NCBI GenBank assembly: GCA_001804285.1
Contig: MHFR01000008.1
Coordinates: 2,740-66,739, forward strand
DNA from: Candidatus Danuiimicrobium aquiferis
GTDB taxonomy: Bacteria; Omnitrophota; Omnitrophia; Omnitrophales; Danuiimicrobiaceae
Direction of reading: 5' to 3'
Length of the DNA: 64,000 nucleotides
Made by a program: the position numbers and the translations under genes. Every line of letters begins with the position of its first letter. The first letter of the stretch is position 1. A model generated the notes under the pieces. That model did not search any database. It was not told the DNA's origin and worked only from the letters and a program-made list of their open reading frames with translations. Below, in pieces: positions 18,801-58,340 of the stretch.

Positions 18801-21800
18801 GCCCCTGAGATGAAACGGTTTTCTATAGCTGTCCTGTGAATGAGCAGTTCTTTCGGAAAACGTTTAGACTCAAACAATCTCCGTGCAGCCATATGAAATA
18901 GAACTGTTTGGAATTGAAAAGTTTTTTCAAGAAGAATTGCTCGATACACCTGCTGTTCAACGGTGAATGCTAAGCCCACTAAACGTGCTCTCTCTTCCGG
19001 TTGGTTTCTCAACTGTGGAAAAAATACTTTCAAAATCATATCATGCGAACTTTTTCCGATTGTAAGCACCAGTGGACCATCAGGAGTTAAAGGATCTGCT
19101 TTCGCTATATCAAGCCGCTCGCGAATCAATTCTTTGACAAAAATTCCTTCGGTTTCCAACCTTGTCACAATCACTTCATCTGGATTTGAAGGCATTCGCT
19201 TTCCACCTGTAGCGTCTTTAGTCCCAAGCCTGGGAAGAAGAAATACTTGAAATAAGCGAGCCCGGTCATCATCGTTCCCCGCCAAAAGATCGATTCTTTT
19301 CTTGGCTTGGACAAGAAAATCGATAACATCTTTAAGCGGATCTTCATGGTTAACTTCCTCTAAACGATCAACCCCCGGCGTCGCAAACGATTTTAAAATA
19401 TAGGCTGCCAGCTGTATTAGCTTTTGAACTGACGAGTCGTCATCGGCAATTTGATTTCTTTCCATCTGACCTTTCAAAATCTTTAACTGACTGCGTGAGA
19501 TTCCGTAAAGCTGCGTCTGCTGTCTGCTTTCTGCATCTAACAAAGCTTGTATAAAACGAGGACCTGCTTTTTGATCGCGTTTTAAAAGCCCTTTATCAGC
19601 CGCAGCGATCAAACGATCAGCTGTTTTGACAAGTTGAGGAACCGATTCTACCGTTTGCCCATCGAGCGAGCGCACTTCGGCACGTTTGGCTAACACATGG
19701 TCCGCCAAAGTACTCTTGCGCGTCTTGATTGATGCCTGGTTGGAACTATTGTCATTGTTACGAACTTCGGACCGTGTAACGAGTACGGCGCGTTTAAGCC
19801 ATTCGTCGAAATGTTTGAGCGCCTCGGCGGAGACAGCGAATCCATCTGTTAGAGCCTCGCCCGACAAAAGAATTTTATTCCGCCCGGACAAGTATGTCTC
19901 GGTAACTAACAATGAATCTAAGTAAGACTCAAATCCGTTCGGGTCTTCCCGGTATTCTTCGTCCCCATCATCATCAAACAACATCTGATTCATTTCCGTT
20001 TCGATTTCAGTCATCGCCTCATCAAGAATATCCATAAAAAGATTTAGATCAATCCGCGTTTGCTGAAGGCGTTCTTTTGCTTCTATTTTGATGGTGGCCG
20101 GAAGTTCTTCGTTATACCGAATACTAAATTCCCGCAGCAAGTCGGCGTTTGTTGCCAGCGAAATCCCGAAATGTTCTCGCTTTATTTCTTGCATGAAGCG
20201 CAACGCGTGTTTGGCTGCTAACTCAGAGATCAAATCTATCAGCAGCGGGCCTTGCTCAAGTTGTGCAGTCCCTTGCTCTTTTGTTGTCGGATAATCCACC
20301 AAATCCGTTCCACTTTTCCGCATTCGCTCATGAACTGAATAATTCCGGTCCAGCATTTTTCGATACGTCTTCTTCAACACTTCCTCCGCCGCATAGGGTG
20401 TTACCGTTTGAGAATGTGTTGCATAATAATCTGTAAGCACCTGGCTGAATCGAGCCCTGAAGCTCTGTTGATGCGATAGAACCCCACTGAATAGTGTGTC
20501 GTAAAGCCCCCGAACCTCGGCCCTGGCAGTGGCAGTCTTCTGCCCGCGCCACAACTGCCAGGACACTTGCGCGCCTGGTTGAATCTCCGCTTTTGTATTA
20601 TCATTATTGAAGCGCGCTTCGGCCCTCGCTCGGTTCCTTTGTGCATCGCGAGGACTCTTATTCGTCACAATTGATAACTGGTTGGAACTACTTTCAAGGT
20701 TACGAACTTCGGCCCGGGGAAAGATACGGGCCCGTTTGAATCGCTCTGCTTTATTCCCTCCCATTTGTTCGGGAGTAGGAGATGTCAGGCCCATCGATGT
20801 GGCTGTCAATTCGCCGTCAACGACAGCAAGGGCCCGCTGCTGATGGTCTGCCGCTTCTCTCGCCAATGAAGCGAATCGGCTACGATCTTTTTCACCAACA
20901 TCTTCTCCTGACGAAAAAAAGTTGGTGTCAAAATCTCCGGCCCACGGCGCCAGATAAAGCAAGACGTCGATTCCTATCTTGTATTGTTTTGAAATTTCCT
21001 TTAGCGGCTCTAAAAATATTGTCGTGGTATTTCGGTGGTGATGATGCCGGTCCTCCCAATGCGGAAGAATGACCGACCACGAAATGCCGTCCGCACGGCC
21101 CGATTCCAACGCCGCCCGGTGTTGGCGGTAAAACGTTTCGAGGCGCTTTTTCATGCGGGCCGTCGCATCCTGAATCGCCCAGTCCGGCGCCAACCCAATT
21201 CCCCGCTGATACGCGGCAACTTCTTCATCGAGCCACTTCACTCTGATTTTGCCGGGCAATCCTTCCCGCAACACCGCGGCTTCACCCGCTATTTCTTTCC
21301 GCCGGATGACACGCCGCATCAATTCTTCAATTTCAAAATTTACCGCCTCACCCACTTTCCAATTCTGAATGAAACGGAGAAGTTTTTCGGGATTCGCAAA
21401 ACAATTTAGTTTTTCTCTGATCACCGGATCGATCTGAGTTCCTTTTTTATCCAATTCCTGAAGCACTCTTTGATAAAATGCATGGACATACTGAATGGTG
21501 CGGTAGAAACGGCTGTTGGGCCGGTACACTTGCTTAAGCTTCCTCATCGCCCAGCGGATTTCCTCTTCTTTGAAATCTGCCACACCCGTGTGGCCCGATC
21601 CGGCCACCCAATTTTCGACCTTCATTCCTTGGCCTAACGCATCAATCATGGCAGCGGCCGCCGCGACCACATCGTCGTCAGGATGAGGAGAAGCTATCAT
21701 CAACGGAACGTCCTTGTTCAAACGAAGCTGAAAATTTTCCTGAGCGTTAACAATTTCACCATTCTCAATCCGTACCACAGTAAACGGATTTGCATATTCA

Positions 21801-24800
21801 ACGTCATCGCCCAGCGCTCCGTCCAGTCTTCCTCTGAGAGCCGCGTAACGCGCCATTTCTTCAAGAATTTTCAGAAAATCAGTCCGGCGCAATTGAGTGT
21901 CTTGACTTCCAAACCCACGCAGGGCTTTTGTAAATCCGGCGCGCGAAAGCGGAAAATAAAAGTTGGCGACATTTCCCATTTGGTAAGATTCATAATAAAG
22001 AACCGTCACCGGACCTGCGCGGGCATCCGCATACGATTGAATAAACTTCTGCACCCACGTATCGTTATGAAATCCGTCATACGGAGCCAGAATCAAATCC
22101 GGCTGAAAATTGCCAAACACTTCACCTGGCGTTTGTTTTAAATCAAAAGCAAACTTGCGGACTTTATTTTTCAATTCGGACGATTGAATGGCTTTGACAA
22201 ATTTCCCGGCCGTATGCGCCGAGCCGCCCGGTTCCAATTCAAGGAGAGCAATATTCAGATTGTGCGGCAACGGAAATTGCTGGACCCTAACGTCAATTTT
22301 CTTATTTGTTAAAATCACTCCTCCCTTCACCTCGTCAATCTTCCAATCAACGTTCTGTATTTCAGCACTACGGATTTCGGCCCTTGGCGAAACACTTTGT
22401 ACACGCCAAGGACTCTCGTTCGTTTCGATTGATGACTGATTGGAACTATCTTTATTGTTACGAACTTCGGAGCGATGCCTCAATGCATCTCCCTCAGCCA
22501 AAGGCTGATCCGCCTCTGGCGGAGAAGCAGTCCCGCGCAGTTCAGCGCGGCGCAGCTCTGCGCGGTTATGATCGCGACTTCCGCTCCCGGTATCCCGTCC
22601 CGGATAGCCGGGCTCTTGATTTTCTGTGGTTTCTGGCCCTGTCGTGCCGGGTGCCCCGGTAGTAGCTTTTTTAAGCAGCTGTCGCAATACTGAAACGGTA
22701 CTCCCGTCGCGGGGAACCAATCGGAGGGCTTCTCTCGCCTGTTGATCCATAATCCGGTCATATGCCTGCTGGGTTTTCCGCATCGTCTGGAAACCTTGGA
22801 AGTTGATGAGAGGCCTAAGCGCTGGAAGCACAAGCGCCATTCCAAAAGATGTCACGAACCATGGGAGAGAAAAAAGCAGCATTAATAGGAAACTGAGAAT
22901 CGGAATAACAATCAGAGCTGAACCCAAAAACACTTCCATTCTTAAGCTCTGCAAATACTCCCGTTTCGCATCATATCTGTTTTCTATTGCTTTTCCGATT
23001 TCATCCCCGGCAAGAAGTTCGCCGGCCTGGTCGCGACGCGCCGGATCGGAATGGACTTGAAGAACGACTTGCAAATACGCGAGTAAACTTTCCCATTCGT
23101 TCATTAAAAAGAGACGGTGGAACACATGATCAAAACCATGAGAGAAAATACTCGCAACAAAAAAGAAATATGCCGCAATCATCGACCAGAAGCCAAAAGC
23201 CACGAACGTATTTAGCGCCGGCATTAAAGGCATAATCGACCGGAACATATAATACATTCCATAAAATAGCACTCCCGTCCCAAACGCCCATTGGGTCAAT
23301 TTGGGGCTATAGGTCCGGAACCAATTGGCAATTCCCGTGAATTCATGCTCAAACCGCAAAGGCGCGCCATAATGAAAAGGGTCGGTTTCCCGCTGCGCTA
23401 AAATGTGTGACAACACATCCGGCGGCCATCCTAATTTGCCCAAACGCTCAATTTTGGTCCGCAAGGTTTTTGCATCGTCATCCTTCTTCAACCTATCGAG
23501 GACCGGCGCTTCTTCAACGATTTTTCGAACCTGAGCGGTCTTGTCTGCTTCACTGCCGGCGGATTGTATTAAATGGACTGCCCATTCACGCCACAAGATC
23601 TGACGCGCCCACAAATAGATGCCCCTCGTGGGAACAAGATCGTCCAGGTCATAACCCATCGACCGGGAATCAAATCTGACGCGGGCTTCCAGCGAAGAGC
23701 CATCGATGTCCATTGAATCGATAGGCGTCATGAGCAAGTTCTGAAGCTCCATCAAACGCTCATTTCTGTTTGTTTCGATGGGCATCGTAAACAAAACCGG
23801 ATAGGGCCAGCCGGTTTTCATTCTGGTCAAAGTTGTCGCGTGCTCAAGGCCCTGCTCGGTTGCGAGTTGCAATCCGGAGATCATCTTTAAGATCATATCT
23901 TTATGTTGGGCAAATAATTGTCTGAGCGGCGCAAGCGATGGCGAATGGTCCAAATCCGCATCGCCGGCTTCATCCCACTGAAGCGCCTCCAAAACATATT
24001 TTCTGGTTTCCGGCTCTGTCAACTCAGGGAAAATCGCGAGAAACATAACTGCAACTGCAATTTTTAAAATGTTCTTCCTTCCGCCTTCGGAATTCTTTTC
24101 GATTGCCTGAAAAGCAGCCGCCACTTGTCTATCAATCGTCTCGAGAAATATTTTATTCAAAGCGCTGCGATCATTCCTCACATGAAAAGCCATGAGCAGA
24201 AGATGAAAATAGACGTATGCATTCCTGATCTGCGGTGGAAGTTGATGCAATCCGTCGAGCATCTTCCGCCGAATGTCAGCATGCTCGTCTGAAGGCGCAA
24301 GCGCACTTACGAATAACAGAGGAAGAGATATCATGCTTTTTTCGGCCGCCGGATGATAAATCGAAAGGATGTCGTTCAGCTGATCGATTGCGTCTTGAGA
24401 AACCACATCCTGAACGAGCAAGTAATGCGCCGCTGCGAACAAAACTCCCATCGGATCATGTTCGGATAAGCCATACAGCTCAAACTGCTTCCGGAAAAGT
24501 TCGCGGTGTTGTTCGTCTAATCGAGCGGTAATGCCTCGCATCAAGTCCCTATATTGGCCTTCTGCAACCGTCTTTCCAGAGCCTGTCTTCATCACGGACT
24601 TCAGCTGTCTCAACTGTGAAACAATATCAAATGACTGTTCACTCCGCGCTTCGGAGCGGCCGTGAACCTCTGGCAATACAAGGCGAGGCATTTCGTCTGA
24701 CGTAAATACAGCAAATCCGCTTTCTTTCCCCGCCGGCGGCCGGATAGATCCTATAGATGGAAATGGCCGTAAAAATTTATCTTTCACGAGTTCTCTGGCG

Positions 24801-27800
24801 TGAAGAGATGGAATAAATCCAGTACTTAAGGGTACCGCTTGACTTTCTCTGTGTTGCAATAAGAGCGTCTCAATTAATTTCCCGGAGAGGTCATAAACCA
24901 AAAAGGCAAATCCAACATCACCGACCCGGACATCGTGACCTGCCATCGTCCGCGCGTCAACATGTTCTGGAATAATCCGGGCAATCATGAGCGTTTCGCC
25001 GATAAAATTCCGGCCAACCGGAATGTATTCTGAATCCAACCGGACATAGCCATTCTGGTTCACTCGATTTCTCGGCACCTGAACGATTGGAAGCCATGAA
25101 TCATTCCCTGCCTTCCAGCTCTTGCCCTCGAGTGCACTTTGATAGGGATCATTTCCATCTCCTTTCACCATCCGGGTAAAAAACTCTACCACCCAAACAA
25201 TTGGTGCCAGTAAAGAAATCAAAAGGATCAGATGAAGATTCTGGGAGAACGAAACAGCCCGGGCCATAAATGGCCGCTTCTTGTAGAATTTGAGTTCGGG
25301 CTTTAAGAATTGTTTTATTGCTTCTCGGTTTCCCTCTCTCGTCCTTCCCGGTACCGGCTGGAAAATACGAAAAGCCTCCGATTTAGCCGGCAGAAAATGC
25401 TCATCCGTTCTTTCGTAGGATGGATCCATGTCATACTCGCGCTGGGCGACAGCGAGCAACCGGCTGTAATCAAAGGCCCCCTCACGATCGGATGGAAACA
25501 CATACCAGCGCTCCACATTATCCGCGTTGGTGCGGTCATATACGATATAGACATCGTCCAGCCCGGCAACGCCCGTCGCCAGATCAATCCATCGAATCCT
25601 TTTATTTTTCCTAAGCTCACCAAAAGAATAACTTGCTTCGTTCGAACCCGGCATTGCCGCCGATAAAGGAAACATCCAAATCAACGGAACCGATTTGTCA
25701 GCCTTCGTAACGGGAACTTTATAATAAAAATGATCCGCATTTCCATCAATCACGCCTCGCTTGAGCGAAATAAGTTTAATCTCCAAGTCATCCGGCCTGC
25801 GCTCAGAGGATGCGCCCGCACGACTAGTCCGCGCCTCGGCCCTGCGGATGTCATTGCGAGCCAAAGGCGAAGTTCGCCAAAAGGCTCGGCGGAATCCGTC
25901 AGGACGAATCTCGCCGGATTTATGGCGGACAATCCCAGAACTTTGGATTGCCGCGGCACCTCCTTGTACGTCACCTCGCAATGACTTGCCTTTTATGTTA
26001 CGAACTTCGGAGCGGCGGTAAGGCGGGGTTTCTTTAAAGTACACATCTTCCCACAGCCCATGCAATCGTTCCTTTAATCGATCAATACTTGCCTCGACCG
26101 CTTCCGGCAATTCCAGAGCTCTTTCTTCCACTTCCGCTGCGTTTTGCCATCGTTCCAGGTAATCCGCAATGGCAGAGATGAAATGCACACCGAAGTACTC
26201 CACAATGCTCCGTTCTCTCAAAATGTTTTCTTTATTAGGCGCAATCTTCCGCGGCTCCAGGTTTTCAATGACCCGCCTCGCGGTACTTAGAAAAACAAGA
26301 GCCTTGGGTTTCATTGCAATCAGACTGTCTGTTGAGGCTGCGCGCCGCATGTCGGCCACAAGTAATCTTAAATATTTGCCCGGATCTCCGAATTTTCCCC
26401 ACTGGATACGGTGCTCTGCGAGCAATTTCCCGCTTGATCGCGCAAAACCTTGATTCCTCAGTAATGGCTCCAGCATCAAACTTAAGCTTTGCACGTTTGC
26501 AAACGTTATCTCGTCCAATTGATCTACCCACTCAAATCTTCGCGCTAATTCTTTTTCTTCTGCAACGGCGCGACCGCTTTCCTCATCGTTAAAACCACTA
26601 AACCGGCGGTCGTAAGGACTTGGAATCCCTATCCCTTCATGCAGATGAGCCGGTGTCCGGACTGGCACCTTTTCACCGGACTTTGGCACGTGGGCTTTTT
26701 CTCTTTTTCTGCGCTTTATGCGTTTTTCGCCCTTCGCAACCATTTCAAAACGAGCCCGTCGTCCGGAAACTCTCGTTCGCAACATTTGCACAGCCTTTCC
26801 ATAAATATCCGCGAGATCTTCGGGGACATCTTCCTCCTTTTCCTCCAATTGAGGAACAATAATGGCATCCAAATAACTTTGCACCTCCGCCAGCGGACAG
26901 TTTAAGGCCCGGAAACCTTCCTCAATTTGCTCATGCAAATCTTCCGGCATCCCTTGACTCAGCATTTCCGTTAATACCCGTTCTTGTTCATAGGTCAAAT
27001 ACGTCACACCAATTTGCTGCTCAATTCTCGTTTCTAAATCGGAAACTTCAGTCAGATACATTGCCACTTCTGCCGCCCGCTTCATCTCTTCGGTCGTACC
27101 AATTTGTTGTTCGATCGCCTGTTTAACAACTTCGCGTATCATGGTCGTCCGCAGAAGATCTGCGAAATCCTTTTCGGTTGGCACATGTTCGGCAAGCGTC
27201 CGCCTCAAACCCTGCATGGCTGCACCCATTAAAATCGCCGCGGGCTGACGGGGCTTCGAACTGGGGGGAAACGCTAAACTGCGTATAAAAATATCCGAAA
27301 CTTTAAGCACCAGCGACAAATACTCATCGACAAATTCCTCCGGCATGTAATACCGCATCAATTCGGGATGCTGAGGAAGAATCTCTCTCCGCTTAAACCC
27401 GCCTCGTCGTAGCTTCAGTTTCGGATGATTAAAAACGCTCATCAAAATTTTGACATAGCTTCTCCCGAATAGATACGCAGTCGGCCCTCTGATCGCACCG
27501 TCCATCCCTAAGATTGAAAAATCAACCGATCTCATCCGGTAAATGTTGCTTCGCAAATTCTCAATCTGTTTTTCTGTCAGGCTGTCAATATCGGCGTACC
27601 GCGCCATTAACCGCGGACGTTTTCGTGTCAGTTGAAATCGGACGGATTCAAGAATCTGTTTTTCGGCAGTTTTCCCTTCAGAAGCCGTCCAAACGAGGCC
27701 AAATCCCAAACGGGTTAACTTCAATTTCGGAAAAGCGGCAATCAGAGTGTCTATGTAACTCCCGTTAAAATGGGGAACCACTTCCTTGCTTAAGACGGCT

Positions 27801-30800
27801 CTTCTCTCCCAAAGCTCAAAATGGCCATGTTGTAATTTATAAATCTCCTCGCTTAAACTTTCGATCTGTTCCGGTGTGGGAGAGTCTCCAAGCTCTAAAT
27901 ACTTTTTCCAAAGATGAGGTGCGTGGCGGGCAATCGCCTGCTGAACGGATTTAACCGAACTTTCGTACGTTGACCAATCCGGTTCAAATCCTAAAGGACT
28001 CAGGTTTAATTTCGGGAAAAGGTTAATCAGCACTTCCGCGAAACCGCCTTTAAACCATTGATTGGTCCCGTAAACAAGCCCCATTGCATTCCAGAGATCC
28101 CGATTGATGTCATAAACTTCGTTTTTTAACAACTCGACACTTTCGGGAATTAATTGGTCGATCTGATCATAACGATCCATTACGCTTGTCATGTCTTTTC
28201 TCAAGCGATAACGGATGGTTTCCAAAGTACCTTCCTTAGATGACCAATCGGGCTGGAATTCGAGCGGATTGAGATGTAATTGTTTGAAAAGAGCCTCAAG
28301 CGCCAACGCATACCGGCCCTCGTACCAGCGATTCGTCCCATGCGACAATCCCCAATAATCCCAAAGATGTGAATTAATTTCATAAATTTCCCGTTTCAAA
28401 GTTGCGATTCTCTCCGGCGAAAGCCGCTTGAAATTGTCGTAGTCCCTAATTAAATGCGGCTCCTTTTTCGCAATAACATAACGAAACGATTTTAGCGTCC
28501 TCGCTTTCGTCGACATATCCAGCTCAAATTCCAAAGGATTGAGTTTCAGTTTCGGAAAAGCAAGGAATAGCGCGTTAACGTAACTTCCCTCAAACCAGGG
28601 AACCGTCTCACGGTTCCCAATGCCCTCAAGCCCCAATAAAAGGAAGTGAGCATTCCTGATTTTGTAAAACTTTCTCCTGAGTATCTCCACGGCATCCGTC
28701 GAAAGCTGATCGATATTTTCATAATCGCGAAGCAACTTAGGATGATGGCGGCGAAACGCATCGACCACATTGGCAATGGCCAAATCCCGGTTTGGTTTCC
28801 TTTCTTCCAAGGGGTGATACGGCGGCTTCAGATGCTCTTTTTTATAACGATCACGGTCTGCCTGATTCAAATTCAAGCGCGGATGGTCAAAAAGAAGCCG
28901 GGCTGCCGGGAAAGCATGCCCGCCCGAATAGTCCTGAGTCAGAGCTCCCTGAAGTCCCCACGCTACAAAATGCCGATTCGTCAGTGCATAAATACGATTC
29001 CTCAATTCTTCAATCTCCGCCTCACCCAATTTTTCAATTCTGTCGAAAAGAGCGATTAATTGAGGAGCTTCTTTTTTCAGAGCGTAATAGAGCGAAACGC
29101 GAGCGTTCTTTTCATCAGACCAATCCAATAAGAATCCGAGCGGGTTGAGATTGAGTTTGGGAAACACGGCTTGAAGGGCTTTGACGGGATCCCCGTCAAA
29201 CCACCGCTTCGTTCCGGTCATCAGCTTCCAAACCTCCCAAATTTTTCCCGTCAACCGGTAAATGTCTTCGCTCAAATTCTCTATTTCGGCCGGACTCAAA
29301 CGGTCGATGCGTTCATATGTCCGCATCCAATGCGGTTTCTCCCGCCAAAGCACCTGTCGCATCGATTCAAGCGTTGCTTCTCTGGACGATATATCCAATC
29401 CCGATTTGCTACGCACCGCGGCTGACTCGAATTCCTTTTTTGTAAGCTTGATTTGGGGAAACAACTCGCGCAAAGCCACGGTATGGTCGCTGCCAAACCA
29501 GCGGTCGGATCCTTCCGCAAGTCCCCACAATTGCCAAACTCGCGGTTTGATTTCATAAATCTCTTGTGCCAACGCCTCGCGTTCGGCGGCACCCAATTGG
29601 TCCCAACGGCTGTAAGTTTCGATCAGATGAGGTTTCTCCACCATGATCTGGTACCGAAAAGATTCCAGCGCCATTTCCTTCGTTGAAAAATCTAAACCAA
29701 AACCGAGCGGGTTAAGCTTGAGTTTCGGGAAAATATCTGTCAACGCCTTTACAAAACTCCCCTCATAAAAGGGAACCAATTCCCGGTTTTCGACAAAACC
29801 AATGCCCCACAAAGTGAAATGCACTTTTCTTAACCGGTAGAATTTATTTCTTAACAAAGTCGCTTCAGCGGGCGAGAGGCGATCAATCTTTTCATAATCC
29901 TCAAGCAAATCAGGGCGGAATTCCTTCATCGCTTCAATAACAGCACCGGTCACAGCCTCTCGGCTTGGCGGCTCCGCTTTAGACCATTCATACTCCCCCA
30001 ACGGATGCTCTTTTCTGTATCTCTCATAACCTTCCCGAGTCAGCTTCAATCTGGGATCACCAAAGAAAAATTTTAAGGATAGGAACGTACTCCCTTTGAT
30101 ATAGTCCCGATGCAAAATACCGGAGGAGCCCCATAATTCGATGTGCCCCCTCGTAATGGCGTAAATTCGATCACGCAAATCGCCGATCTGATCCTCTCCG
30201 AGCTTATCGATTCGGTCATAATCCCGAATGATATCCGGAATTTCCCGTTCAAAAACAAAACGCATAGACCTCGTTGCCTCTTCGCGGGTATCCCACGTCA
30301 GGCCAAACTCCAGAGGATTAAATTCCAATTTTGAAAAAAACGCGATCAAGGCTTGAATATGACTTCTATCGAACCACCGGTCAATCCCGCCGCCCAATCC
30401 CCAAATTCTGAGGAGAGCGCTTTCCAGTTCACAAATTCGCTCCCGCAAGTCTTGTTTCTGTCCCTCTTTTAAATTTACAATGTTGTCATAATCTTTCATT
30501 AGCTCGGGCATTTCACGCTCAAACACATAGCGAAAGTATTCAAACGTCTTCGCCTTTGTACTGATATCCGATTCAAAATCATAAGGGCCGAATTTAATCT
30601 TCGGAAATAATTTGATCAACGGATCAAAGTACCGCTTAAAATGAAACGGCCGGTGAGCATCTGAAATCGCTCCCAAACCCCACGACTTCATGTGCTTATG
30701 CATAATTTGCGTAATGTCGTGCCTTAACTCTTCTTTTCCTTCCGCGGTTAATGCCTCGTAATGTTCATAGCGATGGATGATGGACGGCCGTTTGACGGAT

Positions 30801-33800
30801 AAGATAAAATGTAAGGACGCTAATGCCTGCTTTTCGTTCGACAAATCTAAACCGAACCCCAATGGATTCAAGTCGATATCGTCAAACACCGCCATGAGCG
30901 CGACGGCCGGATCCATGTTGAAATACTTCTTCCGCCGCGGAAGAAGCGCATTCGCCAAACCCAAAACTTTGAAATGGCCAACTCCCGCTGTCCCTTTGCC
31001 GATTTTGTAAATCTCCTGCCTGACCGCTTCTCGTTCCGCTTCCGAAAGCTGTTTCCTCCGCTGATATTGCTTCATTAAAAGCGGAAACTCACGTTCAAGC
31101 CGGTGCCGAATCGACCGGCTCGCCTTGGTACGCGTTGTCCAATCTGGTTTGAAGCCATACGGGCTGAGGTGCAATTTCGGAAACGCCGTTATTAATGCTT
31201 TCTTATAATTTCCTTCAAGTGCCGGAACAGCTTTGCGTTGAACAAATGAGGTCAGCGGGGGTTTTCTGAAATAGTCTGAGCTAATGTCATAAATTTCATT
31301 TTTAAGACTCGCTATTGCTTCCTCATTCTCCAGTTGATCAAGGCGCTCATACCGTTCGACCATATCGGGAAATACCTGAGACAATGCGAAGCGGAGAGAT
31401 TCTTCAAGTTGATTTTCCAAATCCAAATGAAAACCAAGCGGATTCAGCTTCAGGTCGGAGAAAACAGCCATTAACACCTTTGCGTACTTGCCGTCAAAAT
31501 AAGAAACGGTGTTCTTATTGAGAACACCCGCAAGCCCCCAAACGCCAAAATGTTCGCTGTTAATTTTATAAATGTCGTCTTTTAATTCCCTCAGCTCATC
31601 TTCGGTTAATTCTCCGCGACGGTCATACCGTTCCATGATCGTTGGAATTTTTCGCCGCAATCTAAACTGGATTGCTTCCATCGTTTCTTCATACGATAAA
31701 TTAGGGCCAAAACCGACCGCATAGAAACCGAGCGGATTAAGTTTTAGATCGGGAAACGCCGCGACCAGCGCACTCTTGTGGGAACCTTCAAAGTACGGTG
31801 CTTTATCGACCAGGAGGGCTTGCTGCATCCCGGGCCAGCTTTCGAATTCCTGGCGCTGGATTTCGTAAATGTCATCTTCCAAAATCATCCTTTGATACGG
31901 TGTCAGTAGATTCAGTTTTTTGTAACGTTTCATAATATCCGGTCTCACCCGTTCAATGGCATGCTGGACATTCTTAATTCCCTGCGCCATTGTCGTTCCC
32001 AACCACTGATACGGTTGAGTCTGTCCACCTTTTGTCCTTTTATATTTTTCCCCCCGCACCTCGGAGCGATGCCTCAATGCATCGCCCGAAGCAGTCTCGG
32101 ATTTAACCGAAATCCGAGGCAGCTCGGCCCTCGATACACGCCTTTTGAAACGTATCGAGGACTCTCGTGCGCTTTCTATTGATAAACGCTTTAAACTATC
32201 TTCATCGTTGCGCACCTCGGAGCGGGCCGGACGTTTGGATTTTTTATCCGCAGCCGTTTTTTCGGCTTGTCTCACCCGAACGGCACGGCGGCGATGGAAT
32301 TCCAAAGCCACCGTCAAACCTGCAAAGGTAGCCACCCCAAAACCGACACCTGTCACAATCCGGCCCCACGAACGCCCGCATTTTTTTTCAGGCGGAGCAA
32401 TTCGTTCAAATTCGCCCCTCACCCAATCCGGTTGGCTTTCCAAATGATCACCGACCAAAGTTTCCAAAATTTCCGCGTTTGGTTTGCGCCGTTCTTCATC
32501 CGCTGTGTAATTGGGTGAGTTGGCAATATCAACCGCTTTGATTTGATTCCCAAATCGATCGGAAAACTTACCGATCTGCCCGATCAGTTGCGCATGCCGC
32601 GCCTCTTCTTGTGGCGATCGGTTAACAAGATAATGCGGCTGATTTCCTGTCGGCACATGAAGATTATTGGGTTCTACTGTGCCGGCAAAATCAGCATCCG
32701 CTGTGAGATAAATCTGCGCATCGCCAATCACTTTTGCAATGGCATCCAAATTGTCCGGATCCAAAATGTGGAGTGTGACCTTTCTTATATCCGCAAGCTC
32801 AATGGTATCGAGTTCCGATCCCGTAGGAGGGTTCTTATCCGGATTGGGTTTTATCAAAATTTTACCTTGTGCGGAACGTCCGATCTCTACGTAATAGTCT
32901 CTGTAAGAATAACGATACTTTTTGCTCGCCGTTATGAATGCCTCTTTTGGGACAACCCAGGCAATTTCTATCGGCTGATTTCCATCATCAAGAGTTCCGT
33001 GAGCAATAAGTAACCGTAGCCATTCGCCTTCGTCGATGTTGCTTGCCGTAACAATATCCAATTCGTCATTGTCCTTAACTCTTTCCAAACGCTCCTCAAT
33101 CCCGGCCATTTCCGTTCTTGGTGCATCCAGATTCGCCATATCATTATGAGCGTCCCAGGTGACCACTATTTTTTTCCGGCCCGGCTGAAAGATTTTTGGA
33201 TTTTTAAAATCTCTGGCCATATGCGCAAAACTCATATTATGCCCTTGGGCATACCGAATGGGAGCACCTGCTTTCGTTCTGGCCGGTTGCTGAAACAATT
33301 GATTATGAATTTCAAGTTCTTTGAAGATGGGGGCCGCTTGCACCTGCCATCTTAAATATTGACTCATTTCCGAATTCAGATCGACATGCGGCCCAGGCGT
33401 CCCGAACGGCTGAAACCAGGTTTGAAATTTTCCGTACATATACCACACCAACAATTCATTTCTCCACGCACCTTGCTCATCGCGAATGAAAGTTACTGAT
33501 TTGTGCATTTGCTTGAAAACGGTAAAATAGGTTTTAAGAAACTCGTTTTTTGAAACCGCTGGTTCCAAAGCCTGGTGCAAATCTGTTTCATATAAAAACT
33601 TGACCGCCCCATACCAGTCACTCATATCAAGCGCGTGAACAAAATTCTTCCAATGGATGTACTCGCTATGGCCCTCTCCGATTTGAACGCCCCCGGCACG
33701 AACCAACGATTCAATAAATTGGCCAATCGGTTTTCTTTCTTGGCGCATCCGCTCTCCGTAAGATTTGTGCTCTTCAGTAAGCTCCTCCGCGCTTTTCAAC

Positions 33801-36800
33801 ATATGTTCCTTCCCCCGCATGAACGAAAAGTACACGATGGGAGAAAAAATCATTGCTGCCGCGGCGGCCAGCGCACCAAGTAATCCTCTGCGAGAAATTC
33901 CTGTTTTAAACGAATAGGCGATTGCTTCCTGCTCTTCACGCTTCAATCCTTTTATGCTTGTCCCCTGCAAAGCCATTTCGAATTGTTGCCGAGTTTTGAA
34001 AGGACGCTTCGCGAGAATCCACTGAGCCAATCGATCTTTCACTGATTGATCCAACAAATTTAATTGAGGGATGGCATCCACGTACCGCCGAAGCAGTTCC
34101 GGCTTCATTAGATTCACATTCGGTTTTTTAACTCGCCCAGTGCCTTCTGAAACTTGCTTTTCTTCCCCTTGCCGAACTTCGGACATCGCAACGGTTGGTT
34201 GCGAAAAAGTTGTCGCCTCAGCCAAAGGCTGATCCGCCCCTGGCGGAGAAGCAGTCCTTAACTCCGCTCGAGGTAAGGGCACTTCGGCCCTGGCAGCGGC
34301 AGTCTTTTGCTCGCGCCACAACTGCCAGGACACTTCGGCCCTTGGCAAAACACTTTGCCCACGCCAAGAACTCTCGTCCGTCGCAATTGATAACTGGTTG
34401 GAACTACCTTTATGGTTACGTACTTCGGAGCGGAAGAAGCGGTTGCTCCATGTCTGCGTTCGAGCCTCCTTGGGCTGTGTCATCCACTGCCAGGTCCTAC
34501 GAATTCCTTCCGCCGGCGTTACAAAATCATTTGGATCGAGACCAAGAATTGCCTTCATACGTCTCGTATCCATAAGCAAGCGAGGAATTTCTTTTGATGC
34601 AGTATCGAGGATGAGCGCGGCATCAGAACCCGAAGCATCAATAATCGCCTGCGCAACTTCTTTGTCCGAATAGCGCCTTCGCGCGCCGACATTGATTACT
34701 CTCTGATCTCTCAACTGATCCAAAGACGAAACAGCTGCGCGTACAAATGCACGTGCAACATCATCAACGTACGTTAGATTCTTTCTAACCGGTGAATATT
34801 TCAGCTCTGCCGCGCCATGGGCAACTTGATAAAGATACCGATGAACTAAACGGCGGTTCAAATCCGTTCTTGCGGAATCATAGGCTGGTCCGTAAACATT
34901 GCCAAGACGAAGCGAAACACCATTTTCATATTGATTAATGATTCTTTCGCAAATGCTCTTGGCGAGGGCATCCAACTTGGTTGCGTACTTTCCTGGCGGA
35001 GGGCGCGTGCTGAGAAAATCGCGTATTTCCTCCAATGTTTTCTTCTGATCCGCAGCAGAGGAAAGTCCAATAAAAAACTGAACCATTGTCTGAACCCAAG
35101 TTTCAAGTTTGGGTTCTAACTTTAATCCAGTTTCCTTAAGCAAACGTTTCCCTTTTAAATCCATAAGATCATACACGCGCATAGTGGAAGCAAAAACGAT
35201 ACGAGGCTTATGCGAGCTTTCCTGCGCTGTTTTGACAAAAATTGCCGCGGGGAGAACATTCCTATACATAAACTCGGAAATGTCCGCATCTTTCGCGCCC
35301 GCAGCGCCCCACATGGCCAAATGGAAAATGACGTCATTTTGATTCACCAACGCCCGCTGTAAATGAATGTCTGGGAGAGTCCCGACCTCAATTCCGGCCT
35401 TATCCTGATAATCAAAGCGATAGCCACTGAATGGTGCAAACTCTTCCTTTAACAGAACAGGCGTGGTTCGCTTCGCCATCGGCAATACCATATCCATCAA
35501 TACCGAACCAATGTTTCCTCCTGCGCCGGTGATCACAACTTTCTTATCGCGCAGCTCGGACATCGCAACGGTTGGTTGCGATGCCGAAGCAGTCCTTAAC
35601 TCCGCTCGAGTTAAGGGCACTTCGGCCCGTTTAAAACTTTCCATTGATAACTGGTTGGGACTACTTTTATTGAGGCGAACTTCGGCACGCATAACGGTTT
35701 CTCGTTTCAGTAGCCGCTGAACACCTTCGGCCAGCATAATAGATTTAATCAGCATACCGGCCGAAGAAATAACCGGGAACCCGTAACGCTCTGAAGCCAA
35801 CAGTATCCGATTGATTTTGGGAAACATACTTTCGCCACGGCGATGAAAACGCAAAATAGACGCTATCTCGGCTTTAAGACCAATCACGTCAGGATGAGAA
35901 GTCTCCGTGTCAACGGCATACCTTTCAACAAAAGCAAATATATCCCGAACGATATCGGTATAGGGTGTACGGATAATGAAACCATCCGCTTCTGCGGTAT
36001 AAACCATCCGGTCAACCATCAGGTAAGGCTGTTTATATTGCCATTTCGCTGGAGGATTCGACAATAAAGAAGTAATATCTGCTTTAAGTTTCTCTTCATT
36101 ATAATTTGAAGCGGTTTCTCCATGTTTCGTAAGCTCACCAACAATATCGTCAACCACTTCTGTTGTCTCTTTATTCTCGAGCTCCTTGAGAATCGCATTG
36201 ACCGCTTCATCAAAATCTTTGGTGCTGTCATAAGTTTCTCCCTGTAGCACCATCTTCACAAAATCTGATTTGAGGTCAAATGCTGTTTTGTCTGTTTGAG
36301 TGTCAGCCCATTGCACGAGGTTGATTAATCGCGAATTAAATTTCGGATTGGATGCGGATTTTTCAATTAAAAATTCAGAAAACTTATCACGCACTAACGC
36401 CTTTTGTTGATCATTAGAGGAATAGCGTCTGCTCCTCGATCGATACCAATCGGTTTGCCTATACTGGTCTATAAATTCTTTGAAAGCAGTCTCAATAAAA
36501 ACGATAAGCGCTTCATCGTCATCCGTCAACTGAGGCTTTTTAGTTTGAGCGTGAGATTCTCCTGCGGATTTCTGTATAAAATTCGGATCACGCTTATCAA
36601 CCCATGGGAAATAGAACCTAAATAAGAAAAATCGTAAAATCTTCACAACGAACGGAATCGACAGCAGGCAACCAACGAGCCACAAGCCAAAACGAGAAAG
36701 TGGCTTTTTCCCATGCTGGAGGATTCTGACGCCAACGCTCACCAAATCCCGCCTCAGACTACCCGATAAATATCCAACTTGCCCAAAGTCAAAAAGTGAA

Positions 36801-39800
36801 ATCATCCCTGTTAATTCTTCCCCAAAAATATTGCCGGGATGCGGATCTGAATGGAAAACCCCATCTGCAAGTGCCGCTAAGACAATGAGCAAAATCAATC
36901 TTCTGGCCGTTCTCCTCCGCAATAAAGGATTTTTCAACTCAGTGGCTTTAATACCTTTAACAAAACTCATTTCTAAAACATTCTCATTGCTTCCGTAAAT
37001 GGCGGGCTTACTGAATCCATCCGGATAGTGTCGAACGAGCTGTCTTGCCTGTTTGGCTTCGACATTCATATTAAGTTCGCGACGGACCGCTTTTTCAAAT
37101 TCCTCAAAAAACCGGGAAGGCGACATTTGAATAGCATCAGCTCCGGTAAATTTCTCCTTCGAGTTTTCCAGTGTCTTAATCACCTCTCTGATTTTTTCTA
37201 AACCGCTTAGGATTTTTCTTTTTTTTGCAGCAGGTACGACTTTCAAAACAACTTCTTGCCCATCGTGAGTTTTCGCAAGAAATGTGTCTGCCACCGTTCC
37301 GACTTTTAATCTTTTTAAATAAGGCATTTCGATTGCCGCACCCTCGATGGGCACCAACGCTTCGACAAGCGGTTTCCCATAGTAATTTTCAACGGAACGG
37401 ACTATCTCCCCCATTTCAGCGGGCGTCCCTTGATCTTGAAAAACCTCAAACGCCTCACGCATTCCTTCCGGCACCAAGCCTTCCCTCGTACTTAAAAACT
37501 GTCCCACCTTTTCAATTCCCGCAATTCTGAAAAATTCCGCATACGGTTGGGCGGCATGCCATTCCAGAAACCGGTCTTGAAGATCTTTTCCGTTTCTATC
37601 GAAAAGAAACAGTTGAAATCCATTTAAGTCCTTTGAGTATGAACTTCCGTCAAATTCACTCAAAAAATCTTGCTTGTTGGTCTCTGCGAAATATCTCCTT
37701 GCCTGCTGATAAAAATAAGTTTGGTCCTGGGAAGGATTCTTTCCATGATATTCCCCAAATGTGTTTAATATTTTTTCCTGATCACCCGCCGATAATCTTG
37801 AAAAGAACTCCCGTAATAAAAACTGCGCCAATTGAGGCAATGATTTAAGATGTTCTGAAAATCGGGCTATTTTCTCCATATCGGGCGGTTTGGCTGTGAA
37901 AACCCAATGCGCAGCATCCTCTTCTTCAATGTGCGGTGTTTGCATCCGACCCGCCAAGTAGCCGTCAACGCTGTAAGGACTAACTCCCAAAGGCAGGGTA
38001 CGGGCCGATGATTGAGGCGCTGAATCGGCAAAAATGGTCTTAACCCGCCCTGTGAATCCGGTCCTGCTGGCAATATAGCCCTCAACCGAGTGAGGTGACA
38101 AAGAAACGACGTCAACTTTTCGAACCTGTGGAACACGGCCCAAACTTTTCAAAACTGCTTCTGCGTTGGATAGATCATTCGGCGTGTTTAAATCAAGCAG
38201 GCCGTTTTCCTCTTTCACTTCATACATTCTTAACAAGTCCGTTCCCATAAAGAAACGGAAAAGAAAACCCGTTCTTACAATTGCGAAACGATTCAACTTT
38301 TTCGTTTTTTCATAATAAGCACGGCTGGATAGCGTATCTTTATGGACAGGGCCTTTAAACCATTGGATTAATTTAAATATAAATCTGACGAGTTTAAAAA
38401 CAAATGGGTGAAATAAATGAATACTGGCAGCAACTTCATGAATATTTTCCAGTTCATCGGCAGTTAAGTAACTGCCATCTGAAAGCTTGAGGCTTCCACC
38501 TTGCTCTTTTAAAAGGTCAATCTCCCGTTGTGTTGCGATTGTGTCAAATCTTCCGTTTCTTAATCGAACGATGCGGTCTACTCCATGCGGCTGAGTAAGA
38601 TGAGTGGTTACAAAGGTATAAAGCGCGGGCCAGCCACGCGGCGGTGAATGAATATGCATGGCATCAAAAATAATTTTCGGATTCGTAATGATCACATCTG
38701 CCGGCACGATCAATATGTGCTTGGACCTAAATTGATCTTGATATAAATCATACGGGGTAAATGCGGCATTCAGAGTACCAATATTGACCGGCACGACGGT
38801 GCTATGCGTCTGTTTTGCTGCTTCACTCACTCGAGAATCCGCTTGCGGATGCTCACCATTCAATACGGACACAAAAGATGTCAATCCGATTTCATCTGCT
38901 GTATCCAAAAAATACCGCATAAGCGGCTTCCCTGCCACATTTCTAATTTGTTTCGGCGTGGTATCCCCATCTGAAAACATCCGGCCGCTCGTTCCAGCAG
39001 CTAATTGAATTGCAACCCAAGAACTTAATTGATCTTTTCTGTCATTTTGTTCGCTCAATTTCTGAAAATCATAATGATGGACATCAAGAACAAAACGATA
39101 ATCAGGGATGAAAGGCGTAAACAGTGATGCTATCCGATTAGGAACAAGTAGGTGCGCTAATATCCATGCCACAAACCAATTCTTTTGATCAATCCGCGTA
39201 CTTCGAAGCAAGTGTTGCTGTCTGGCTTTATTAATGTCCTGTGCAACAAAAAGAGTTTTGGCTGCCCTTACCTTTTCGAAGAGAAATTTTGAAAATGTTC
39301 CTTCAATGATGATCATGGTATTCGGTTTTAGTGATTCGGAATTGATCATGTCTTTATTTAGGGCTTGCGAGAAGGATTGAATCTTTTCTTCATCAACATA
39401 ACAATTCGCAAGATAATGGATGAGTATTTTTTTCACGGTTTTACTTGGAATAACGGAAGCAAACAAACTGAAGGCAAAACCAAATAAAATCTGAAATACT
39501 AATTTAAATCCCCATGCCCGTGTTCGAGAAAAATCGCTCGTTTTGACCAGAATTACTTCACGCCCTCTTTGTTTTAAGAATGCCTGATATTCTTTGGCAA
39601 ATGTTGATTTCCCAACGCCAGGGACGCCATCTATCACAAGAATGAGATTCCGTTCTTTATCCTTCAAGAGTGAGGATGTTAATTTCTCAAACACTTGAAT
39701 ACGTTCAGAAACTGTTCCCACAGCGGCAGAAGATTCATTCCGTAGCTCGGAGCGAGGATTCATTTCCTCCTCGCCTGGAGCAGTCATTGACTTAACCAAA

Positions 39801-56276: not shown

Positions 56277-57962
56277 TTATTTTATAAATTTCCTCACAAC
56301 AATCGCCACATTTTTGCCACCAAACGCCAAACTGTTACAAACAGCTACTTTAAAATCCCCTTTGCGTCCAATATTTGGGACACAATCTAAATCACATTCA
56401 GGATCCGGAACTTCATAGTTTATTGTTGGATGGATAAAACCTTCATGAAGAGCAAGCAGCACGGCGGCTAACTGTTGCCCGCCCGCTGCACCAATTGGGT
56501 GCCCCAACATTGATTTGGACGAAGGCATAACAAGTTTATAAGCATGTTCGCCAAAGACCCTTTTCACAATAGCTGTTTCATAACTATCATTAACCGGAGT
56601 TGCATTGCCATAAGCTTCAAAAATATCAACTTCCTCTGGTTTGATGTTGGCATCTTCCAAAGCAAGTTCGATTGCTAACGAAGTATAATCACCGGAAGGA
56701 TGCGGTTTAGACATATGCCAGGCATCACAAGTAGCACCGTAACCAACTAATTCTCCATAAATGCGAGCGCTCCGCTTTAAGGCATATTCCAATTCTTCTA
56801 TAACAAACACCCAGCCACCTTCCGCAATCACAAAGCCATCTCGATCTTTATTAAAAGGACGCGATGCCTTTTTATCATTGCGCGTTGATATGGCTCCCAT
56901 TTGACAGAAAGCCGCAACAATAGCAGAGGTTACACAAGCATCGGCCCCACCAGCTACTACAATCTCCGATAATCCATATCGGATTTGTTTTAAAGCATAT
57001 CCAAAAGAATCTGTAGCGGATGTGCAACCGTTAGAAAAGGTAATGCACATACCTTTTGCACCTATCGCTCGTGCTGCCTCTGAAGAAATCGCCCCACCAA
57101 AACCTGCGATACCAGCAAATGGACGAACGCGACGCACCCCACCTCTTTCTAACGCGCGTATTTCAGGCTCTGCATAATCAAGGCCAGATGTCGCACTACC
57201 AATAATGACATCCACAGAATCGCAATTAAATAAATCCAACCCAGAATCTTTAACTGCAAGTTTTGATGCCGCAACCGCTAAATGTGCAGATCGCCCCATT
57301 CGTTTAATCTCATGAAAGTCTTCGACAAACAATGATGGGTCGAAATCACGGATTTCTGCTGCAACTTTTGAAGGATACAAAGAACAATCAAATAAAGTAA
57401 TTTGGTCTACACAATTTTTTCCTTCTCTGAGTCCTTTCCAATATTCATCTTTGCCAATCCCACTGGGCGCAACCACTCCGATGCCAGTAATAACAGCCCT
57501 TTTTAAGCCGGTTTTGTCATCTCTTCTTTTATGATGTGGCAGTGGTTCTGACGTAGAATCCTTAAGCTTTCTTTCCTGCTCGATAAGCTGAAGTTCTTCA
57601 TGAATACAGTTCAAAATTACATCATTATCAAATGGCTTAAAAATAAACTTATTAATGCCAAGCTTAATCGCATGCTCAGGAGTATCTTCCTCCGCATACC
57701 CTGTAATTAGAATATATCCGCACCCTATCGCCTTTGCTGAATAAATCTCCTTGATCTTTTGGATCGCAACCACTCCATTATCACCGGGCATTCTGATATC
57801 CGAGATAACCAAGTCAAATTCAAACCGCGCCGCTAACGACACCGCTTCGATGGCATTCGCAGCTTTTCGGACTGCATAACCTTGTTTTGTGAGTAGCTTA
57901 CTAATGCTCTGTAAAACTAATGGATCATCGTCTATTAATAAAATATTGTATGTTCTTTTCAT
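56277..57962 (-). CDS. Fusion protein: an N-terminal response-regulator receiver domain followed by a C-terminal beta-ketoacyl-ACP synthase II (FabF-like).
   Basis: The REC part is ILLIDDDPLVLQSI…DLVISDIRMPGDNG…ITGY…KPF (aa 1–120). The KAS part is …KRAVITGIGVVAPSG…FSNGCTSATDS (Cys)…CDAWHMSKPHP (His)…KSMLGHPIGAAG (His)…AFGGKN. Confidence 0.7.
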   Translation of the reverse strand: MKRTYNILLIDDDPLVLQSISKLLTKQGYAVRKAANAIEAVSLAARFEFDLVISDIRMPGDNGVVAIQKIKEIYSAKAIGCGYILITGYAEEDTPEHAIKLGINKFIFKPFDNDVILNCIHEELQLIEQERKLKDSTSEPLPHHKRRDDKTGLKRAVITGIGVVAPSGIGKDEYWKGLREGKNCVDQITLFDCSLYPSKVAAEIRDFDPSLFVEDFHEIKRMGRSAHLAVAASKLAVKDSGLDLFNCDSVDVIIGSATSGLDYAEPEIRALERGGVRRVRPFAGIAGFGGAISSEAARAIGAKGMCITFSNGCTSATDSFGYALKQIRYGLSEIVVAGGADACVTSAIVAAFCQMGAISTRNDKKASRPFNKDRDGFVIAEGGWVFVIEELEYALKRSARIYGELVGYGATCDAWHMSKPHPSGDYTSLAIELALEDANIKPEEVDIFEAYGNATPVNDSYETAIVKRVFGEHAYKLVMPSSKSMLGHPIGAAGGQQLAAVLLALHEGFIHPTINYEVPDPECDLDCVPNIGRKGDFKVAVCNSLAFGGKNVAIVVRKFIK

Positions 57963-58139: not shown

Positions 58140-58340
58140 GATGACGTCGTTTAGCCCGGATTTCTCATCGTTAATAAGAAATTCCGCTCGTAAGAGCTGC
58201 GGTGCAAGGATGTTTGCGTCTTTGCGACGCAGGGCTTATCTTTTGCGCCCTGATTTACCAAGGGCGCAAAACTTTGGTCGAAACTAATTGCGCCCAAAGC
58301 GCCTTTCTCGTCGATTCACAAAATCGATGAGAAAGGCGGG
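58140..58340. repeat. About 200-bp hairpin-rich intergenic element (copy 1). Copy 2 is at 63770–63990.
   Basis: The shared blocks are …ttatcttttgcgc(c/g)c…gggcgc(gc)aaaactttgg… and the terminal hairpin tttctc(g/a)tcgatt-loop-aatcgatgagaaa. Confidence 0.6.

Follow-up and report, generated by a model that had tools for sequence, protein, structure and literature searches.

What is the long tandem array that lies inside a single giant gene of Candidatus Danuiimicrobium aquiferis, and what could such an array be doing there? The window, by which we mean the whole 64,000-nucleotide stretch that was analysed (contig MHFR01000008.1, positions 2,740 to 66,739), carries an open reading frame (ORF) of 13,076 amino acids (aa) on its reverse strand (6851..46081, -). 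This single ORF holds the array, a 4.6-kb stretch with 16 tandem units of a ~94-aa all-alpha repeat at aa 4687-6217 (27431..32023, -), as delimited by profile iteration, alignment and structure prediction with AlphaFold2 (AF2). On balance, we lean towards the view that this is a new helical repeat of about 94 residues that forms rigid, solenoid-like rods. These would serve as a scaffold or docking platform whose surfaces are specific to each position, and a sigma-70-like domain is often coupled to them. The explanations that we weigh here overlap and are not mutually exclusive.

Units, sub-arrays and predicted fold

A preliminary description of the locus, made from the sequence alone, had noted about 16 copies of a ~90-aa repeat between 27400 and 31800. 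A profile hidden Markov model (HMM), seeded with nine units anchored at LNPLGF and taken through four iterations on the whole 13,076-aa protein, finds exactly 16 units, all within aa 4696-6217, with per-unit E values of 1e-25 to 1e-36, and no further copy in the remaining 11,500 aa. The count was thus correct and the array is real, but the upper limit first given is short by about 220 nucleotides (nt) and misses most of the first, or cap, unit. With boundaries set at the conserved P-x-L-x-L start, the units of the window measure 90-109 aa, and the most frequent period in the family as a whole is 94 aa. The consensus of 327 non-redundant units, P.L.LNPLGF.LDWST.E.AIESVRYVL.RE.PDI.ERY..LD.L...E.E.LR.DIY.I...HF..WGL..A.....APYF.GSY..AL..VF, agrees with the one originally proposed. 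The conserved aromatic and hydrophobic positions of these units are L3, L5, F10, W14, V24, P33, Y39, L53, I57, Y58, I60, F65, W68, G69, L70, F82, G84, L90 and F94; conserved polar positions are few (N6, D13, S/T15-16, E18, S23, R25, R54, H64 and S85).

P0020, which stems from a separate read-level assembly of another data set (SRR3990167), matches aa 4215-5166 with 99.3% identity, and the array sequence is therefore not an assembly artefact. Apart from the giant ORF, the array region holds on either strand nothing but ORFs of up to 137 aa, which we judge to be due to chance, and Rfam gives no match; opposite-strand features and RNA genes were rejected on these grounds.

The array is divided into three sub-arrays. 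The first, units 1-7 (aa 4687-5342; 30056..32023, -), ends in '..FFFGDPRLKL'; the second, units 8-11 (aa 5343-5742; 28856..30055, -), ends in 'FDHPRLNLNQAD'; and the third comprises units 12-16 (aa 5743-6217; 27431..28855, -). Unit 1 is a cap unit, which lacks the junction motif PxLxLNPLGFxLDWS, and every array examined opens with a cap unit devoid of this segment. Unit 8 is a long unit of what we call the B type ('PRLKLTREGYERYRKEHPLGEYEW'), to which unit 12 also belongs, and each of the two comes after a '(D/N)HP(R/K)LxL' ending. After unit 16, the array closes with a degenerate half-unit, 'NHPKLKLRRGGF'.

To what family does the repeat belong? The preliminary description could place it in none, and the searches bear this out. 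A Pfam scan of the whole protein gives no match in aa 4687-6217 at E ≤ 0.01, and when the 16 units are scanned singly at E ≤ 1 the matches are scattered over single units (best E 0.042), with none common to two units. NCBIfam has no match to the units, and profile-HMM searches of PDB sequences reach, at best, E 0.12 when the profile covers one unit and 0.48 when it covers three units in 32 rows. The repeat matches no family or solved structure in Pfam, NCBIfam or the PDB. From a 32-row alignment of three-unit segments, AF2 predicts units 13-15 (aa 5843-6117) to be all-alpha, with a mean predicted local distance difference test score (pLDDT) of 96.1, which stays above 90 across the junctions, and a predicted template modelling score (pTM) of 0.83. 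Each unit is modelled as about six helices of 4-15 residues, and the pTM obtained for three units implies a fixed inter-unit geometry. Foldseek finds no significant match to this model in the PDB (best E = 2.1, TM-score at most 0.24) or in BFVD (best E = 1.6), so that the HMM and the structure search suggested in the preliminary description bring up no confident known repeat fold.

Could the repeat nevertheless be a very divergent member of a known alpha-solenoid superfamily, with, for example, two ARM/HEAT-like repeats per unit, and hence no new fold? The top PDB matches from Foldseek, non-significant as they are, are nearly all alpha-solenoids of ARM/HEAT type or designed ones (MO25, VPS35, CLASP2, STAG1, the SARM1 ARM domain, exportin-4 and designed helical repeats), and six helices per unit would fit two three-helix ARM-like repeats. 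Weak, sub-threshold Pfam matches to HHH_2 and to the GA module in homologues also favour such a kinship. The summed HHH_2 matches amount to 27.1 bits in P0001 (cut-off 27, with 0 stretches passing alone), 20.4 in P0003 and 16.6 in P0009; the units of the window have none. Against this, the sole Pfam repeat model to match the units at E ≤ 1 is TPR_NPHP3, on one unit (E = 0.095), the PDB profile searches reach a best E of 0.12-0.48, and Foldseek gives E ≥ 2.1 despite a model of such high pLDDT. We give a divergent known solenoid little credence. A DNA-binding array of the helix-hairpin-helix (HhH) or topoisomerase-V-like kind was rejected, since its matches are sub-threshold only and the net charge is near neutral: single units range from -5 to +13, and the near-neutral charge of the whole argues against an array that binds nucleic acids non-specifically.

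Like the alpha-solenoids (HEAT, ARM, TPR, Sel1 and designed repeats), the array consists of tandem helical units whose hydrophobic core is conserved and whose surfaces vary, and the rigid packing of these proteins, which are usually protein-protein scaffolds, is predicted for the array too. However, alpha-solenoid units have 34-47 aa and two or three helices, whereas the unit of the array has about 94 aa and about six helices; there is no profile match or significant structural match between them, and the array has a junction motif and cap units. Spectrin-type repeats resemble it in being helical, tandem, ancient and diverged units of ~90-110 aa with positional identity, and they form rods, as the array is proposed to do. 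Yet spectrin units are three long coiled-coil helices, in contrast to the roughly six short helices of the array unit, and no Foldseek or profile match joins the two.

In the explanation that we prefer, the units would pack on one another into rigid, alpha-solenoid-like rods, with the N-terminal junction motif of each unit bridging to, and packing on, the preceding one. The window array would then be made up of three such rods, with 7, 4 and 5 units, and a cap unit would open each of them.

Distribution, age and positional conservation

How widespread is the repeat, and how old? Word-index searches, with four units or with the 16-unit alignment, found no homologue. An exhaustive profile search, from which our homologue set derives, found 90 clusters at E < 1e-3 among 1.84 billion representative proteins, 51 of them at E < 1e-30, and the family is thus rare. 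The 90 homologues have 1-16 units each and up to 6,811 aa, and many are fragments truncated by contig ends. In genome loci, retrieved with a 5-unit alignment, uninterrupted arrays reach at least 19 units. Repeat number in relatives, which the preliminary description had proposed to compare, accordingly runs from 1 to at least 19, with 16 in an orthologous locus (L022, below).

The taxa concerned are Candidatus Omnitrophica/Omnitrophota, Candidatus Theseobacter exili and another Auribacterota metagenome-assembled genome (MAG), and MAGs labelled Elusimicrobia or Planctomycetia. Across these, the repeat occurs only in proteins that are targeted to the membrane and are, for the most part, giant. 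The hosts that are not giant are stand-alone proteins of 900-1,200 aa that bear a signal peptide. The simplest of these, from an Auribacterota MAG (P0006, encoded at L012 9035-11803, +), has 922 aa and consists of a signal peptide followed by 9 units only; its start, 'MKTLLRLIVLLSCIISSEAG', is lipobox-like, with 'LLSC'. In P0032 a signal peptide likewise precedes the array, and in L014 and P0025 a ~370-aa N-domain stands between the two. Around the stand-alone genes lie housekeeping genes (chorismate enzymes, A2M, RecQ, permeases), which offer no hint as to function. Two large members, P0007 (3,275 aa) and P0014 (4,546 aa), have no Pfam match anywhere. In two groundwater MAGs labelled Elusimicrobia, many short contigs start or stop inside an array (L002-L011, L013, L016-L019); their short-read assemblies may have been broken up by several arrays, or by very long ones.

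The preliminary description took the array to be ancient, under purifying selection and not the product of a recent expansion. Pairwise identity among the 16 units of the window is 17-48%, with a median of 31%, so that the copies are indeed diverged, although the 30-50% first stated is slightly high. A tandem expansion at the DNA level in recent times was rejected, because Tandem Repeats Finder detects no 270-300-nt period, and what DNA-level similarity is left is limited to the junction motif, in stretches of at most 43 nt that are 60-77% identical. Of units 6-16, which lie outside the near-identical fragment P0020, nine of the 11 have in another protein a counterpart that equals or exceeds the best paralogue in similarity; for units 1-5, this is true of the second-best outside match.

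A second locus, L022 (JGI Ga0209515_10000997), encodes an ORF of more than 4,998 aa. Its residues 580-2365 are colinear with aa 4635-6440 of the window protein and 51% identical to them, and gaps do not exceed 12 residues. It, too, has 16 units, and each of the 16 window units finds its best match at the same ordinal position. Identity along this diagonal averages 0.56 (range 41-65%), as against 0.32 off the diagonal, where the maximum is 0.48. Over the array, Nei-Gojobori counts give a proportion of synonymous differences (pS) of 0.79, which is saturated, and of non-synonymous differences (pN) of 0.30. Hence, the 16-unit architecture is older than the split of the two lineages and has been kept under purifying selection, as first surmised. 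Among paralogues, 15 columns are in effect random (9% identity); in these, orthologous units are still 32% identical despite the saturated pS, which points to constraint on each array position individually. It is thus a supported conclusion that the array is ancient, that it is under purifying selection and that its units are individually constrained.

Might the array nonetheless be a passive spacer or molecular ruler, which sets the distance between modules or transmembrane (TM) anchors and whose surfaces have no specific partners? Unit number in the family varies widely, from 1 to at least 19. The charge of the array is near neutral, its invariant positions are mostly of the hydrophobic or aromatic core type, the conserved polar residues S23, R25, R54 and H64 are without a known role, and the window array lies between candidate TM segments at aa 4575 and aa 6951. 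All of this would suit a spacer. Such an element, however, would tolerate the loss, gain and homogenisation of units, whereas the 16 units of the window and L022 retain both their order and their individual sequences, with 32% identity even in the columns that vary freely among paralogues. We regard a mere spacer as doubtful.

All units share a conserved core, while each array position retains a conserved surface of its own, and this points to a structural scaffold or docking platform, whose position-specific partners would be other modules of the giant protein or separate proteins. A structural or binding scaffold had been suggested from the outset; the rigid all-alpha model and the position-specific conservation are consistent with it, and it is on these that we infer one. 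In its strongest form, the proposal would be a 16-station, position-specific docking rail with a new helical fold, each unit recruiting a different module or client, coupled to a membrane-tethered sigma-like domain. We hold this full version to be quite improbable. If true, the rail would organise the multi-enzyme giant protein as an intracellular, all-alpha analogue of the cellulosomal scaffoldin, and would give a first handle on the spatial organisation of Omnitrophota giant proteins. The cohesin arrays of cellulosomes are comparable in that similar tandem modules occur in a very large membrane- or surface-associated protein, and individual cohesins can differ in binding specificity, which offers a conceptual parallel to a docking rail. 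Cohesins are ~150-aa beta-sandwiches joined by flexible linkers and are clearly extracellular, whereas the array is all-alpha and contiguous. Omnitrophota giant proteins with dockerins are known (10.64898/2026.06.07.730766).

The sigma-70-like neighbour and the side of the membrane

The array stands beside a sigma-70-like domain in at least 12 proteins, that of the window included. In P0001 and P0012, Pfam detects Sigma70_r2, r3 and r4 directly upstream of the array; in P0021, P0064, P0009 and P0046, it detects r3 and r4 directly downstream of it. With family-specific profiles, a sigma-like domain is also found in P0024, P0034, P0072, P0073, L022 and the window. The spacing between the two is ~20-125 aa, on either side of the array, in P0001, P0012, P0009, P0021, P0024, P0046, P0064, L022 and the window.

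The post-array segment of the window (aa 6218-6345; 27047..27430, -) starts with the half-unit and continues as a divergent helix bundle that resembles sigma-70 region 2 ('MGAAMQGLRRTLAEH..DFADLLRTTMIREVVKQAIEQQ'). Its aa 6283-6339 match a family-specific jackhmmer profile with E = 6e-19, and only the first 30-70 residues of the segment resemble the unit (hhalign probability 33-54%). Regions 3 and 4 are undetectable after the window array, where no counterpart of either can be aligned to the Pfam-verified sigma domains of homologues. In an alignment with those Pfam-verified domains, G174, L175 and F189 are invariant and the WW aromatics are absent from the window; the post-array subfamily has 'NLARNRMKQRI' and 'DLLRTTMIREV' in place of the bona fide sigma motif 'TYAKWWIKQAL'. 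The aromatics of sigma region 2 are used for melting of the -10 promoter element. An AF2 model of the last unit with the post-array region has a mean pLDDT of 64 (68-86 for the post-array part), and Foldseek retrieves with it a weak match to the SigE N-domain (probability 0.82, template modelling score TMt 0.68, E = 3.3), the rest being noise. The association with a sigma-like domain is real but partial, and the sigma-like domain of the window looks like a degenerate, region-2-like remnant.

Is the array, then, a regulatory or sensor extension that acts in cis on a membrane-tethered sigma-like factor, binding or occluding the sigma-like domain or recruiting regulators to it? The close spacing in nine cases, and the fact that array and sigma-like domain form one colinear, 51% identical cassette in the window and L022, would favour such a role. 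On the other hand, about 80% of the members with readable flanks have no sigma-like domain, and neither do any of the stand-alone array proteins. The region-2 aromatics are replaced in the post-array subfamily, regions 3 and 4 have gone undetected in the window, the unit and sigma profiles are unrelated (hhalign probability < 1%), and 16 position-specific units far exceed what one domain would need. A dedicated regulator of this sort seems rather unlikely to us. Other candidate kinships of the 94-aa unit within the giant protein, with its 53-aa helix-turn-helix (HTH)-like repeats and its ~95-aa repeats (both described below), as well as with the sigma-like domain, were rejected at hhalign probabilities of at most 1.2%.

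A comparable arrangement exists among extracytoplasmic function (ECF) sigma factors, since ECF42 members have a C-terminal TPR domain and the planctomycetal ECF01-Gob members combine TM and WD40 segments. As in the array proteins, one polypeptide combines a long repeat domain with a domain of the sigma-70 family; there are cases in the PVC group, and some are membrane-tethered. The array proteins differ from these in having a sigma-like domain of the r2-r3-r4 type, hosts of several thousand residues and a different, new repeat; moreover, the window has a sigma-like part that is degenerate, and the majority of arrays have none.

On which side of the membrane does the array reside? Topology was judged here from hydropathy and charge counts only. 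Strong TM candidates precede the array at aa 2194, 3131, 4067 and 4575, and the next one after it is at aa 6951. The last of the four (aa 4575-4593, IVTGVGFGVATFAGLTVAL; 32303..32359, -) is separated from the array by a very basic, low-complexity linker (aa 4594-4686; 32024..32302, -). This linker has two RSEVR motifs, and the dispersed DNA repeats at 32055-32133 and 32178-32224 overlap with it. Given a signal-peptide-like N-terminus and four TM candidates, the array should lie on the same side as the N-terminal domain, and in L022, where this domain and the array are contiguous with no TM segment between them, the arrangement agrees with the parity of the window.

These observations would be compatible with an extracytoplasmic stalk or adhesin, an exported helical rod that projects modules from the envelope or touches a host or prey cell. 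Such a rod fits the episymbiotic or predatory lifestyle proposed for Omnitrophota. The classical signal peptides of the stand-alone P0006/L012 and P0032 proteins speak for it, as do the placement of the window array with the N-terminal domain, the uninterrupted junction of the two in L022 and the published prediction of membrane anchoring or secretion for most giant proteins of Omnitrophota (10.1101/2023.11.21.568195; 10.64898/2026.06.07.730766). But the same compartment would also have to hold the sigma-70-like domains of P0021, P0034 and P0064, which are fused to their arrays with no TM segment in between, and it would place enzymes dependent on ADP-glucose, ATP and NAD outside the cell, which is biochemically odd. 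In the window, nucleotide-sugar-, ATP- and NAD-dependent enzyme domains would lie on the same topological side as the array, and the very basic stretch after the candidate at aa 4575 would be cytoplasmic by the positive-inside rule; the TM calls themselves come from hydropathy alone. An exported stalk is a possibility worth keeping in view, though we consider it unlikely.

The topology of these proteins is something of a paradox. P0021, P0034 and P0064, as well as aa 1-2193 of the window protein with its glycosyltransferase and P-loop domains (GT5/GT1, P-loop), combine a single signal-like segment with domains of cytoplasmic type, and since no TM helix intervenes, these domains would, at face value, be exported. 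The same tension has been reported for Omnitrophota giant proteins (10.64898/2026.06.07.730766).

Several points weigh against the scaffold reading that we favour. A scaffold is the default reading for any helical repeat. The rod geometry proposed here derives from pTM and predicted secondary structure only, and the apparent conservation by position from a single pair of orthologues. A sigma-like domain adjoins the array in only about 20% of the members with readable flanks, and in the window, where the sigma-like part is degenerate, Pfam detects no sigma region in aa 6218-6700. As to location, the evidence conflicts, with the signal-peptide or lipobox N-termini directly before the arrays of P0006 and P0032 arguing for the extracytoplasmic side and the sigma-like fusions, basic stretch and enzyme domains for the cytoplasmic one.

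The giant protein and what the repeat may mean for its hosts

The N-terminus of the giant ORF is signal-peptide-like, and hydropathy scans of the whole detect about nine strong hydrophobic segments. An N-terminal domain of ~550 aa (aa 12-569; 44375..46048, -), without a Pfam match, is shared, by BLAST and at 22-27% identity, with no fewer than nine further giant proteins that bear an array (P0004, P0010, P0014, P0015, P0023, P0028, P0031, P0056 and L022), and it may be a common, membrane-proximal 'head' of such proteins. Pfam places on the ORF, all on the reverse strand (-), a Glyco_transf_5 domain (starch-synthase GT5, PF08323; aa 1130-1380), GT1 (PF00534; aa 1690-1781), a P-loop at about aa 2140, NTP_transf_3 (aa 2360-2470), an ABC1 kinase (aa 2930-3126) and an NAD epimerase (aa 3515-3799), along with methyltransferase matches.

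In the window, ~4,000 aa of enzyme modules and the four strong TM candidates separate the N-terminal domain from the array, whereas in L022 the array cassette follows that domain directly. The earlier placing of the array at the centre of a mega-protein is, for this reason, not to be taken literally: the array travels within giant proteins as a cassette, an autonomous module, and often takes the adjoining sigma-70-like domain with it.

Near the C-terminus there are two further repeats: seven to eight copies of the 53-aa HTH-like repeat ('LKGLNVSQAA..IGVS..GL..HL', aa 11715-12160; 9602-10939, -), with sub-threshold Pfam matches to HTH and Sigma70_r4_2, and about three or four copies of the ~95-aa repeat (aa 10259-10582; 14336-15307, -). 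There are ~45 instances of the motif R(S/A)E(V/L/I/A/M)R in the giant protein (for example at aa 4620, 4672, 6690, 7870 and 10096), most of them in the low-complexity linkers that separate its modules, and two of them, at aa 4672 and aa 6690, flank the array cassette. Such linkers could serve as sites of processing, or as joints at which recombination shuffles modules. Several linkers of the giant ORF are dispersed DNA repeats that are mutually 92-98% identical (15699-15815 and 22377-22493; 15847-15904 and 35551-35608; 32055-32133), a pattern that suggests that in-frame linker cassettes have spread, or undergone gene conversion, in recent times. The ORF also contains the in-frame peptides 'WIPAFAGMT' (aa 446-454; 44720-44746, -) and 'SERSESKDL' (aa 9337-9345; 18047-18073, -), of a sort that we take to be typical translations of repetitive extragenic palindromic (REP)-like DNA elements. 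If so, the giant ORF tolerates in-frame insertion of small repeat elements.

Elsewhere in the window, a 561-aa ORF (56277-57962, -) fuses a response-regulator receiver (aa 1-130) to a FabF-like beta-ketoacyl-ACP synthase II (aa 154-557), which is an unusual combination. A 135-nt direct repeat, 98% identical, occurs at 59959-60093 and 60949-61083, 990 nt apart, and a 50-nt element with an internal palindrome ('CTCGTCGATT...AATCGATGAG') is present twice, at 58294-58343 and 63913-63962, with 86% identity. The flanking citrate synthase has a 100% identical counterpart on JGI contig Ga0209343_10045742 and is 64-69% identical to its next-best homologues, of which the named ones (63-66%) are proteins of Omnitrophica/Omnitrophota MAGs. 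That contig and P0020 are fragments of the same organism as the window; an exact 26-mer taken from the array had no match among metagenome contigs.

How does the window protein compare with the giant proteins described from Omnitrophota? It is like them in its length of more than 10,000 aa, its signal-peptide-like start, its TM candidates and its many unrelated enzyme domains. It belongs to the class of the 'multi-enzyme metabolic cluster' (Nielsen & Lui 2026), which comprises Omnitrophota proteins of at least 10,000 aa with a TM segment or signal peptide and many Pfam domains, none of them dominating (10.64898/2026.06.07.730766), and its PF08323 and PF00534 domains are hallmarks of the sugar-metabolism module in the same 2026 catalogue. 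The Archaeovorin proteins (West-Roberts et al. 2023), which are much larger, have numerous TM regions, a divergent SecA DEAD-like domain and HEAT repeats (10.1101/2023.11.21.568195); in the 13,076 aa of the window protein there are TM candidates and no SecA or HEAT match in Pfam at E ≤ 0.01. The repeat classes treated in the two papers are Pfam-defined (TSP3, NHL, WD40, HEAT, TPR and dockerin), and neither paper mentions the present repeat or sigma-factor domains (10.1101/2023.11.21.568195; 10.64898/2026.06.07.730766). Those classes are visible to Pfam, whereas the repeat of the array is not. A helical tandem-repeat scaffold in an Omnitrophota giant protein is of a known general kind, and the family itself is new; new as well are its unit architecture, its junction and cap rules, its positional conservation and its partnership with a sigma-like domain.

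Giant proteins of 10,000-147,000 aa are a current puzzle of Omnitrophota biology, and a large fraction of their sequence is unannotated. The repeat is a definable, recurrent building block of such proteins, with an HMM, boundaries, a confident predicted structure, a known range, rules for caps and junctions and a one-to-one orthologue, and it can enter domain catalogues and so help to annotate this dark sequence. Its recognition may also aid assembly, given the several short MAG contigs that begin or end inside arrays. The minimal stand-alone protein P0006/L012 is a convenient construct for structural or localisation work, and the fold, if confirmed to be new, would add a natural helical repeat of ~94 residues to the repertoire of repeat-protein design. 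For the hosts themselves, conservation unit by position and the recurrent fusion to a sigma-70-like domain lead to testable hypotheses on how the giant proteins of these bacteria may be organised and regulated.

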